A stretch of DNA of 64,000 nt from NCBI RefSeq assembly GCF_002854065.1, contig NZ_CP024147.1; one strand, written 5' to 3'. This document shows positions 50,101 to 62,100 of the stretch, piece by piece (positions within the stretch are counted from its first letter, which is position 1; every line of letters starts with the position of its first letter). Origin of the DNA: Escherichia coli (GTDB taxonomy: Bacteria; Pseudomonadota; Gammaproteobacteria; Enterobacterales; Enterobacteriaceae). A program made the position numbers.

Positions 50101-53100
50101 TTAAGCGTAGTCCGTAACGCAATAAGTAACGAAATTAACGGGATTGGCGATTTGCGAACGTGATGCATGTCCGCGATCGCACAAAATAGCCGGTGCGGCG
50201 TCTATTCCAGGTTATAAGTTGAGAAAACCACTAAGGGAAACGCCTGATGACGCCCATTCTGAATCACTATTTTGCCCGTATTATCTGGTCGGGAGCTGCT
50301 GCGGTCAATATTGATACGCTTCGTGCATTGCACCTGAAACACAATTGCACCATTCCGTTTGAAAACCTCGACGTTTTGCTGCCGAGGGAAATACAGCTTG
50401 ATGATCAATCTCTGGAAGAGAAATTGGTGTTCGCCCGGCGTGGCGGTTACTGCTTTGAACAGAATGGTGTGTTTGAGCGGGTATTACGCGAGCTGGGTTT
50501 TCAAGTACGCAGTCTGTTAGGTCGCGTAGTGTTATCTAATCCGCCAGCATTACCGCCGCGTACACATCGTTTGCTGTTGGTGGAGCTGGAAGGAGAAAAA
50601 TGGATTGCTGATGTCGGTTTCGGTGGTCAGACATTGACTGCGCCGATTCGTTTAGTGGCGGATATCGCACAAATAACGCCACATGGCGAATATCGGCTTT
50701 TACAGGAAGGGGATGACTGGATTTTGCAGTTTAATCATCATCAGCACTGGCAGTCGATGTACCTTTTTGATCTCTGCGAGCAACAACAAAGCGATTATGT
50801 GATGGGTAATTTCTGGTCGGCACACTGGCCGCAATCGCATTTTCGCCATCATTTGCTGATGTGCCGCCATTTGCCGGACGGTGGCAAGCTAACGCTGACC
50901 AATTTTCATTTCACCCATTATGAAAATGGGCACGCGGTGGAGCAGCGAAATCTACCTGATGTGGCGTCGTTATATGCTGTGATGCAGGAACAGTTTGGTC
51001 TGGGCGTAGATGACGCAAAGCATGGCTTTACCGTGGATGAACTGGCGTTGGTGATGGCGGCGTTTGATACGCACCCGGAGGCGGGAAAATAATTTATGTC
51101 AGGTTGCCGGATGCGGCGTAAACGCCTTATCCGGCATACATTAGCCCGGTTGTAGACCTGATAAGCGAAGCGCATCAGGCAACGGTTTCAGAGTTTAATT
51201 GCCCATTCGGCATGAAACAAAATCACCGCCGCGCCAGAAATGGTGACTTTTTCCGGTTGGTTATCACGAATTGTCACCGTCACTTCAATCACGCCGTCAC
51301 GCCCCAATGCGCGCCCCTGATGGCCTTTAACACGCAGCACCTTGCCATCGTGGGGCAATACGTTGTGATGTACCAACCATGCACCCATCGGGCCATTGGC
51401 ATTGCCAGTTACCGGATCTTCCACAATACCAATCGCAGGCGAGAACATGCGACCATCGGTTTCGTTTTTGCCTGGGCGGATCTGGAACGGGAAGAAACCA
51501 TTGCAGCCAATCTGTTTGCTGATAGCGCTCAGCGCAGCAAGATCAGGCGAAAGGGCGTCGATATCCACTTCTGATTTCAACGGGATCATCACTTTTGAGT
51601 GTCCTGTTGTTGCCACCTGAATTGGCAAGCCTGGCAGAATATCGTCCTCAGTGAGATGAAGCGCGTTGATAATCGCCGCACGTGTTTCACCTTCCAGCGG
51701 TGGCTCAAAGCCCGGCGTACCTTGTTCCAGCGAAATACGATAACCATCGTGGTGCTTTTCGATAGTCACGCGATGTTTTCCTGCCAGCGATGTTTGCCAG
51801 ACCGTGCAATTTCCTAAACCTAACACCTTCGCACGTACATAGTGCGCAGCTACTGTCGCGTGACCGCAAATAGGCACTTCAACTGTTGGCGTAAAGTAGC
51901 GGATGCGCACATCGCTGTCGTCGCTGTGCAGCAGAAAAGCGGTTTCCGAATGACCTAATTCGCGGGCGATAAGCTGCATTTGCGCTTCGCTAAGATTATC
52001 GGCGGGGAAAACAACACCGGCAGAATTGCCGCGAAATGGTTGAGAGGTAAAAGCATCGACGTGGTAAACCTGCGGTTTCATTAACGTTCTCCTGTGACTG
52101 GAGAACTATCATAGCCTGCAAGTGGCCGGAGAGCGAAGGGCTATCCGGCCAGGGTGAAATTATCGCCGCGAGCGCACAATCTGATACCGACGAGTAAAGT
52201 ACTCAAACGGCGCGCTCCACACATGCACCAGTCTAGTGAACGGGAAGAGCAGGAAGATGGTCATTCCCAACACCAGATGCAGGCGGAAAACGAACGCTAC
52301 ACCGTTAAGCATCTCTGACGATCCACCACGGAAAGTGACAATGCTTTGCGCCCAACCCACCAGCTTCATCATTTCGCTACCATCAGGATACTGTGCTGAA
52401 AACGGTATGGTGCTTAGCCCCAACAGACACTGGACCAGCAAAATGCTCATGATGATGATATCCGGCGTAGTGGAAGTGGCACGCACGCGCTGATTTGTCA
52501 GCCTGCGCCACAGCAGTCCTGCGCCGCCAATCAACGTCAACACACCGCAAATACCGCCGAGCACCATCGCCATTAGTTGTTTCGCTGCCACTGGCAAAAA
52601 CCACGCGTACATCCAGTGCGGCGTTAACATGCCGAACAGGTGCCCGAAGAAAATCCCCAAAATGCCAATATGGAACAGATTCGACCATATCACCATCCCG
52701 CGTTTATCGAGCATTTGACTTGAGGAGGCGCGCCAGGTGTACTGCCCGTAGTCGTAGCGCAGCCAGCTGCCGAGGAAAAACACCGTCGCACAAATGTACG
52801 GGTAGATATCGTAAAAAAAGACGTTCAGATACTGAATCATTTCCCACCTCCCGCACTGATGTCGACATATTGCGGCGCGACATCCTGGCTAAAGCGTCGC
52901 TGATATTGATTGAGCGGCGGGCTGTCACACGCCGTGGCGTTATCTTCAATAAACTTCACCTGTTCCTCTTCCCACACTGCATCCAGCGCCTGGCGGGTGT
53001 CATCGCGCTCTTCGCTGTTTACTTGTTTTGTGACACTGTCGCTTGAAAGTGTACTTCCCGCCAGTTGCAGCAGAGCATCAAACAACGCGTACCACGGTGC

Positions 53101-59100: not shown

Positions 59101-62100
59101 CTCTCTGAGCTTGCTCATCACTACCGCCTTTCATCTTCACCCGATAAATGGTTATCTGGCGAAAGATGACGGCGATCATCTGGAAAGTAGAACCACTTCC
59201 CAGACCCGCGGTCAGAAACAGCCCCATAAATACGGCGTAAAATGCGATGAAATTACCGGAGCCTGTGCCCGGTAAGGTAAGGAACAGCAGGGCGCTGAAA
59301 ATCGCCATAAAAATAAAGTTGATCAACGTCACCCGCACGCCGCCGAATTTATCGGAAATAGCACCACCAACCGACCGCGCGATGGCACCGATAAATGGGC
59401 CAAAGAACGCCAGGCGCAGAATATTCACATCCGGGAACTGGGTTTTTGCCAGCATGGCAAAACCCGCAGAAAAACCGATAAACGAACCGAAGGTGGCAAG
59501 GTAAAGCAGGCTCAACAGCCAGAGATGCAGGCGTTGTAACACAGGGAGCTGGTCGGCAATTGACGCGCGTGAACTGGCGATATCATTCATCCCTGACCAG
59601 GCGGCGATCGTGGCAATCGCTAGTAGCGGTACCCAAATCCATGCGGCATTCGCCAGCGACATCACCGAACCGTCGGCCTGCGGTACTCCATTGACGCCGA
59701 GAAAGGCAAATACGGGTACAAAAATGACCAGCGGTGCAACCAGCTGCATTACACTTACACCTAAGTTTCCTAATCCGCCATTAATCCCAAGAGCGCTACC
59801 TTGCCTGGCTTTTGGAAAGAAGAAACTGATATTGCCCATGCTCGAAGCAAAGTTCGCACCTGCAAAACCGCATAGCAAAGCGATAACGATAAATATCCCA
59901 AAAGGAGTATTCGGATTCTGCACGGCAATTCCGAGCCAGACGCAAGGAATAATCAGGATTGCAGTACTAAAAACCGTCCATCGGCGTCCACCGAATATAG
60001 GTACCATAAAGGAGTAGGGAACACGCAATAATGCGCCAGAAACGGAGGGTAATGCGGTTAATAAAAAGAGTTGATCGGTAGTAAAATTAAAACCGATTTT
60101 ATTGAGATTAACGGTAACTGCGCTAAATAGCATCCAGACACAGAAGGCAAGAAGTAGACAACTGACTGATATCCAGAGGTTTCTTCGAGCAATATGTTTT
60201 CCTTTATTTTCCCAGAAGGCCGGATTTTCTGGTTTCCAGTCGCGTAAAAGATAACGACTATTTTTCTCATTTTGCAGTGCCATATTGTTCCTCACATGCA
60301 CACATTGGTAATGAAAAAAGACAAAACAGGAGGTAAGGCGCAATAGCCAGTTATTAGAATTAAGGATGAATTGGGTGAAGTGCTGATTGAAAGAATAGAT
60401 AAGAAAGCGTAACAGCGGGGGCAGAATGGGGATTAGGTAGCCAGATATGTGTTACTAAATGTAACTGACAAGCTAACCATTAAACGGGGGGTAATCTTTG
60501 AACGCATGTCATGATACAACCCTTCAGATGATGAATCCAAAGGGTTGTATATTAACTATATTCTTAACAAGACAAGACACTTATAGAATTAGCAATAATT
60601 TATTCACTCAAAAGGCCATGAGCTGGAGGAAAACGATCTGTCCAGAAGGTCTATCGGTTCCTCTCTTATTGCCTGATTGTAATAATCGTTATTACAGTAA
60701 GTATTGTTTATTCCATCTAAGGTCATGTTTTTAACTTTTATATTCCTCTGGTTTACAACTTCCTCTGTCTTGTAAGTGTGTATATTATATGGGGTATATG
60801 CTTTTTTAATAGTATAGTGAAACAATTCGTTATCCACATCTATTCCGTCAGAGTGAACTTCAAATGCACCAGGCGAAAGAATTGCCAGGCCAGTATTAAG
60901 CTTAAGTGCTGGGGAAAATAAATTAAATAACATGAGCTGCATAGTAGGGCAATTGTTCTTCCCAGAAACATTTAAAAAATTTAAGTTTTTGCTCTGTTTT
61001 ATTATGGGGAATAAAGTTCCAATATCGGATGTATTATTAGTATCAATGCGGGTTATTTTATTATTGTCCAGCCTTAAACTTTTGATAGATGAAAGATAAG
61101 TCAGGAAATGAAGGTTTATATTTTCCAACTGATTGTTAGCAGCGTTTAATGTCTGAACATTGCAGAAGTTGCTATAAAACATTTTAATTTCAGAAAGCAA
61201 GTTGTTGTTGATAAGTAACGTATTCAAGTTGGGAAATAAGGCATTGTGTAAACTTGTTAGTTTATTATGGGATAGATCCAGCAGTAAGAGTTCTTCTTTA
61301 TTTCCTGCTATAATATCAGTTAATTGATTATGGCTGAGATTCAGGTATTGCAGCCATTCGCAAGATTCTAATTGCACAAACTCTAGTTGATTATGTGCCG
61401 CACTAAAGTAAGTAATTGATGAAAGCCTATCTATATCAATATTTCTGAGAAAATTATTATTCATAGATATATGTGTAATGCTTACATTTCTGCCTTGAGG
61501 AAAATTTATTGACTCAAGAGCGTTACTATTCAGACTAAGCTTTACGAGTTTATCGTAGTTGGTTGCATCAAAATGTGTGAGTTGGTTATTATCAAGATTG
61601 ATAGAGGTGAAGTTTTGCAGCCCTGGTGGTTGAGTAGTTAAATTAAGTCCTGATAAATCAATGTCATTCTGTTTCGACAAAAAAGCACAGTTTATTCTTT
61701 TAGCGGCTTCGTTTCGACATTCCGGACGATGGATTTCACCTGTAAGTATACGTTCTTCTTTCCATTTATTTAATTCGAGCATCCAGTTAAGTTGATTTTT
61801 TTCTGGATGTTGCTGTATGGATTGTGGTTTTATTTTGTTAAATATTGAAGGGAATTTCATAACTGCTCCGTAGTAATACAATGTTTTTCTGATTTATCAC
61901 CCTTGATAAACCAGGATGTGTTTTATAACTCTGTTGTAAAGGATTGGCTTAACCAATTATTGGATGTTAGACCATAACCTAAGGAAGGTTTACTCTCATT
62001 ATGAATATAATAACAGACGGGTGTGCCCGTTGGGTCCTTGAGCCCCGAGAGTGAGGATAGAGAAGAGGAATTTGACTTATAGTCACCAACCCCGTACATG

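Follow-up and report, generated by a model that had tools for sequence, protein, structure and literature searches.

The narU-narZYWV locus for the second membrane-bound nitrate reductase in a 64,000-nucleotide stretch of Escherichia coli DNA

Gene content of the narU-narZYWV locus

We analyzed a 64,000-nucleotide (nt) stretch of Escherichia coli DNA (NCBI RefSeq assembly GCF_002854065.1, contig NZ_CP024147.1), referred to here as the window, in which an earlier note made from the sequence alone had placed the narZYWV genes for nitrate reductase Z and the transporter gene narU at positions 52160-60283. Our results make it nearly certain that this region is an ordinary, intact E. coli narU-narZYWV locus, which encodes the second membrane-bound nitrate reductase of the species. 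Five long minus-strand open reading frames (ORFs) fill 52160-60343, and gene coordinates were taken from this ORF listing together with the RefSeq annotation of the E. coli CUWW06 chromosome (NZ_CP182139.1), converted to window positions; in a megablast search of complete E. coli genomes, all 8401 bases of window positions 52000-60400 matched that chromosome at 100% identity.

All five genes lie on the minus strand, and their order in the direction of reading is that of transporter, alpha, beta, chaperone and gamma genes. The first, narU (58895-60283), encodes a 462-amino acid (aa) nitrate/nitrite transporter of the NarK family, within the major facilitator superfamily. It is followed by narZ (55073-58813), encoding the 1246-aa catalytic alpha subunit of nitrate reductase Z, with its molybdenum bis-MGD cofactor and FS0 [4Fe-4S] cluster, and by narY (53532-55076; labeled narH in RefSeq), encoding the 514-aa iron-sulfur beta subunit. 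The narW gene (52837-53532), for a 231-aa molybdenum-cofactor assembly chaperone of the NarJ type, sits between the beta and gamma genes, and narV (52160-52840; labeled narI in RefSeq) encodes the 226-aa di-haem b membrane-anchor gamma subunit at which quinol oxidation takes place. G+C content across the cluster is 52-56%. ORFs of 226-1246 aa without an internal stop, scoring 426-2331 bits against their protein families, are well outside what chance would produce.

These results agree closely with the earlier note. The limits of the span that it gave are identical to those of the converted CUWW06 annotation, the five co-oriented minus-strand genes that it named are all intact and correctly identified, and the overlaps of 1-4 nt that it claimed at the narZ/narY, narY/narW and narW/narV junctions read as 4, 1 and 4 nt, respectively. 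With three overlapping junctions and a single 81-nt spacer, the cluster also deserves the description "compact."

Mechanically called ORFs extend further upstream for two of the genes, to a GTG at 58870 for narZ and to a TTG at 60343 for narU. The true starts are the ATG codons at 58813 (narZ) and 60283 (narU), because GGAG/GAGG ribosome-binding sites lie 6-9 nt upstream of them and because the proteins so defined match their family profiles end to end, as well as the solved NarG and NarU chains from residue 1.

Family assignments were made by scoring each protein against curated NCBIfam models with their own cut-offs, and all five proteins exceed theirs. NarU scores 1020 bits over residues 1-462 of 462 with NF011608, "nitrate/nitrite transporter NarU" (cut-off 836), and 340 bits with TIGR00886 (cut-off 312); the solved structures that it matches best are those of E. 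coli NarU itself, 4iu8 and 4iu9, with 1001.6 bits over residues 1-462 for 4iu8. NarZ reaches 2330.6 bits with the narG equivalog TIGR01580 (cut-off 1084), residues 2-1234 aligning with profile positions 1-1235, and its best solved structures are the NarG chains 1q16 and 1r27, aligned over 1-1245. Scores for the remaining proteins are 981 bits for NarY with the narH equivalog TIGR01660 (cut-off 524), 511 bits for NarW with NF011628 (cut-off 410; the full 1-231 of 231) and 118 bits with the narJ model TIGR00684 (cut-off 59), and 426 bits for NarV with the narI equivalog TIGR00351 (cut-off 106).

Residues expected to bind cofactors are likewise in place. NarZ retains the motif H50-x3-C54-x3-C58 (H50GVNC54TGSC58), C93 and D223, which we take to correspond to His49, Cys53, Cys57, Cys92 and Asp222 of NarG in 1Q16. 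Four cysteine groups begin at residues 16, 183, 216 and 243 of NarY; the third of these has the form CxxWxxCxxxC (CRGWRLCISGC), with a tryptophan instead of the second cysteine, at a [3Fe-4S] cluster. NarV keeps four haem histidines, at positions 57, 67, 188 and 206. In the crystal structures of NarGHI, residues of this kind ligate FS0, the molybdenum cofactor, FS1-FS4 and both b haems. No substitution relative to K-12 touches any of the cofactor-ligand residues.

Alignment to K-12 narZYWV and narU, the check proposed in the earlier note, gave gap-free protein alignments of equal length at 98.7-99.6% identity, and the DNA of the cluster as a whole is 97.8% identical to that of K-12. The most divergent gene at the nucleotide level is narZ (97.5%, with 7 aa differences and 1239 of 1246 residues identical), followed by narY (97.6%, 2 aa differences), narU (97.9%, 4), narV (98.1%, 1, I136V) and narW (98.7%, 3). 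The five genes, their order, relative strand and lengths, the 4/1/4-nt overlaps and the 81-nt narU-narZ spacer are the same as in K-12 b1469-b1465, and yddE follows narV in K-12 as it does in the window. The window differs from K-12 at 183 nucleotides inside the five genes, all of them allelic only. We also considered a mosaic or recombinant origin for the window's copy and rejected it: in sliding 300-nt comparisons with K-12 and O157, identity never leaves the 95-100% range and shows no discontinuity.

Junctions, transcription and DNA upstream of narU

All five genes, on the minus strand, would be read together as a single compact unit. The stop of narZ overlaps the start of narY by 4 nt (ATGA), that of narY overlaps narW by 1 nt (TAATG) and that of narW overlaps narV by 4 nt (ATGA), and a strong Shine-Dalgarno sequence precedes each of the five starts. 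Translation of narZ, narY, narW and narV is probably coupled through these overlapping stop/start junctions, though such coupling would not be obligatory, because each downstream gene has its own Shine-Dalgarno sequence.

At the remaining junction, narU and narZ do not overlap, and 81 nt lie between them. We infer that narU is co-transcribed with narZYWV, because this spacer holds no terminator-like structure or promoter-like site and because one point mutation upstream of narU in strain BW25113 raised the transcripts of all five genes (PMC11417348); the authors of that study treat narUZYWV as one operon. The spacer does contain an imperfect, decayed hairpin resembling a repetitive extragenic palindrome (REP) at 58844-58892 on the minus strand. 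The 100-nt stretch around it has a folding energy of -26.8 kcal/mol (z = -2.0), and the hairpin is not an intrinsic terminator, because no U-run follows it. The spacer sequence is identical in the window, K-12 and O157. In strain G749, a further 13 bases (CACGTCTTATCAGGC-type REP sequence) make the hairpin longer and more REP-like. A 2-codon mini-ORF, ATG TCA TGA, also lies two bases past the hairpin region and overlaps the narZ ATG.

No result speaks against the identification of the locus, and the weaker parts of the reading are confined to its regulation. Our promoter consensus scan returned fewer promoter-like sites than shuffled sequences did, with no such site ahead of either narU or narZ, and the 81-nt spacer leaves room for an internal promoter or for processing of the transcript. 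A clearly less probable but realistic alternative is that narU and narZYWV form two transcription units, with a narZYWV promoter in or before the spacer and the hairpin marking either the 3' end of the narU mRNA or a site at which it is processed. Consistent with this division, narU/narZ is the sole non-overlapping junction and the one that carries a conserved hairpin, and in many papers the operon is called narZYWV, with narU left out of the name. The hairpin, however, lacks a U-tract and was not listed as a terminator by our scan, the spacer and the sequence directly before it showed no promoter-like site, and the effect of the single BW25113 mutation extended to all five transcripts. The two-unit and one-operon views are in any case compatible rather than exclusive.

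At the other end of the cluster, a G+C-rich hairpin at 52123-52151 on the minus strand comes directly after the narV stop, and no U-run follows it. The co-oriented yddE gene begins 78 nt after narV, and a 96-nt spacer after narV has a folding energy of -32.5 kcal/mol (z = -2.7). A terminator scan found no canonical terminator after narV (narV-yddE) or after narU. An Rfam scan of 49000-64000 at E<=1 returned no RNA match inside the cluster, and a tRNA scan found none. The only Rfam match was a sub-threshold one outside the cluster, to the family naRNA4, at 51098-51136 in the nhoA-yddE spacer (39.9 bits against a gathering threshold of 59.5, E = 3e-4), where the sequence is in all likelihood just a REP element of the usual kind. 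The genes downstream of narV in the window are pptA-yddH-nhoA-yddE.

Upstream of narU, the stretch at 60284-60468 on the minus strand is common to all four strains compared and presumably includes the promoter and 5' leader of narU, with homology to G749 beginning, in the alignment, about 185 nt ahead of the narU start codon (~60468). A consensus scan of 60284-60468 found no sigma-70 site. At ~60313, about 30 nt ahead of the same codon, a T-run has six residues (T6) in the window, one fewer than the T7 of K-12/BW25113, O157 and G749. Further out, between narU and the gene upstream of it, for a leucine-rich-repeat (LRR) protein, is a perfect 16-bp hairpin at 60514-60550 (-23.9 kcal/mol, z = -4.5), whose K-12 counterpart has a shorter, 13-bp stem. 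Window position 60546, inside this hairpin, corresponds to BW25113 position 1538580, where the T1538580C mutation is ciprofloxacin-adaptive and raises narUZYWV transcription (PMC11417348); the window keeps the wild-type base. The hairpin sits in island DNA that is wholly absent from G749-type strains. We consider it improbable that the regulatory DNA upstream of narU, with its 16-bp hairpin and T6 run, makes this lineage express narUZYWV unlike K-12. Should the hairpin act as a barrier to read-through from the upstream LRR gene, which is EspR1-like, natural hairpin variants would tune the levels of nitrate reductase Z and NarU.

The island itself is AT-rich (60604-63187, 33-35% G+C) and lies between narU and a porin gene. 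Its intact 418-aa LRR protein is 93% identical to an O157 protein annotated as the type III secretion effector EspR1, and the island also carries further LRR gene fragments. An OmpC-family porin gene follows at 63351-64000 and runs off the window end; it is an intact 1101 bp in the CUWW06 annotation. The narU side of the cluster in the window, with its intact EspR1-like gene, additional LRR fragments and full porin gene, is unlike that in K-12, in which yddJ, yddK and yddL have decayed: yddJ and yddK are frameshifted remnants of the island, and at the porin position there is only the short remnant yddL. G749 lacks the island. Beyond the window end, yddG and fdnG come next in the 100% identical CUWW06 genome.

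Conservation and narV dimorphism among E. coli genomes

The cluster is a textbook, near-universal E. coli core locus that is already known. A megablast search found a match in 5412 of the 5426 complete E. coli genomes searched and covered at least 80% of the query in 5390 of them, in line with its description in the earlier note as conserved. Matches of at least 99% identity occur in nine records only; most fall at 95-99%, and 973 fall at 90-95%. Divergence in narV and at the 3' end of narW accounts for much of this lower band. In G749, for example, narV is 83.3% identical to the window gene, with 28 aa changes, whereas narU, narZ and narY are at 96-98%; the divergence wanes through narW, and the flanking genes are at 95-98%.

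Searching with narV alone gave a sharply bimodal distribution, with 4105 records at 95% or above, just 8 at 90-95% and 1297 at 80-90%. The divergent narV, in the region corresponding to window positions 52160-53000, looks like an old, imported recombination patch. Gene conversion from narI was examined as its source and rejected, the G749 narV being not consistently nearer to K-12 narI than the window narV is when compared in 60-nt bins. The window carries the common, K-12-type allele, and the divergent allele belongs to other strains rather than to the window. The statement in the earlier note that nothing anomalous was seen holds for the window's own copy. Separately, a few E. coli plasmids, such as the 142-kb NZ_CP107722.1, carry a gene resembling narI whose identity to narV is about 67%. 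The narV search returned 38 plasmid places and the search with the whole cluster 29, which suggests that E. coli may harbor plasmid-borne nar clusters.

Differences between the window and K-12 are concentrated at third codon positions, which account for 87 of 95 in narZ, 35 of 37 in narY, 25 of 29 in narU, 10 of 13 in narV and 6 of 9 in narW. Because substitutions fall mostly at these positions, the excess indicates that all five genes have likely been held under purifying selection. We also weighed whether the cluster, though present, is decaying in this lineage, as a redundant paralogue in the course of turning into a pseudogene. Nitrate reductase Z is a minor, redundant enzyme, and neighboring genes have decayed in some strains (yddJ, yddK and yddL in K-12; nhoA and ydcC in O157), which lends the idea some plausibility. 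Even so, we regard decay as very improbable: the five frames are full length and free of internal stops, the ligand motifs are intact, substitutions relative to O157 and G749 as well as K-12 are mostly at third codon positions, and nearly all of the genomes searched keep most of the locus. The lineage-specific substitutions that we observed include E16D, S255A and T411K in NarZ and H41R in NarW.

Predicted function and comparison with other nar systems

By analogy with NarGHI, the intact NarZYV complex is predicted to act as a quinol:nitrate oxidoreductase. NarU would carry nitrate in and nitrite out across the inner membrane. NarV would oxidize quinol at the periplasmic face and pass the electrons on through its two b haems, from where they would travel through the four iron-sulfur clusters of NarY to FS0 and then the molybdenum cofactor of NarZ, and nitrate would be reduced to nitrite in the cytoplasm. 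NarW, as a NarJ-type chaperone, would hold apo-NarZ for cofactor insertion and would not form part of the final enzyme. This electron path and the chaperone role are drawn from the structures of NarGHI and of NarU/NarK and from the nar literature.

Expression of nitrate reductase Z is low, linked to RpoS and to stationary phase, and not induced by Fnr or NarL; RpoS-dependent, stationary-phase expression of the operon has reportedly been described by Chang et al. (1999). Published work connects nitrate reductase Z and NarU with nitrate respiration in starvation or during slow growth, with the fitness of uropathogens and with early adaptation to ciprofloxacin. The window's copy brings nothing new to this known physiology, and its value here lies in explaining 8.1 kb of the window by a well-characterized locus.

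Outside E. coli, the narUZYWV operon of Salmonella is RpoS-dependent and tied to starvation-stress tolerance. This stiA locus goes by the same operon name in the literature (PMC7038943), and it is likened to the window cluster by that name.

The paralogous system within E. coli is narK-narGHJI, which encodes the major enzyme, nitrate reductase A (1Q16 and 1R27; NarK, 4JR9 and 4U4T). Like the window cluster, it has the order transporter, alpha, beta, chaperone and gamma, and the two share the same cofactor-ligand motifs. The junction overlaps of narGHJI are 4, 4 and 1 nt, compared with 4, 1 and 4 nt in narZYWV. The intergenic spacers also differ: narK and narG are separated by about 515 nt carrying the small RNA NarS, at a locus adjoining narXL, whereas the 81-nt narU-narZ spacer has no NarS-like sequence. 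A blastn search of the whole window with K-12 NarS and the narK-narG spacer, made, by analogy with narK, for a NarS-like small RNA from the 3' untranslated region after narU, returned chance-level matches only.

That the window instead holds narK-narGHJI, or a locus combining the two paralogues, might be suggested by the generic RefSeq labels narH and narI on two of the genes and by the fit of the same NCBIfam equivalog models to both paralogues, but we give this practically no credence, since the window proteins share only 74.6, 78.8, 77.9, 55.5 and 71.2% aa identity with K-12 NarK, NarG, NarH, NarJ and NarI against 98.7-99.6% with NarU and with NarZ, NarY, NarW and NarV, sliding 300-nt comparison with the K-12 narZ locus (95-100% identity) reveals no mosaic block, the cluster is flanked by yddE and by the yddG/fdnG side rather than by narXL, and the spacer is 81 nt instead of about 515 nt and lacks NarS. 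Identity and synteny thus refute assignment to narK-narGHJI, and the locus is that of nitrate reductase Z, not nitrate reductase A, because both its identity and its flanks match the K-12 narZ locus. Expression of narZYWV has been described as constitutive, in contrast to that of the Fnr/NarL-controlled narGHJI (PMC7005491), and this is consistent with a narU-narZ spacer that resembles neither the 515-nt narK-narG control region nor NarS.

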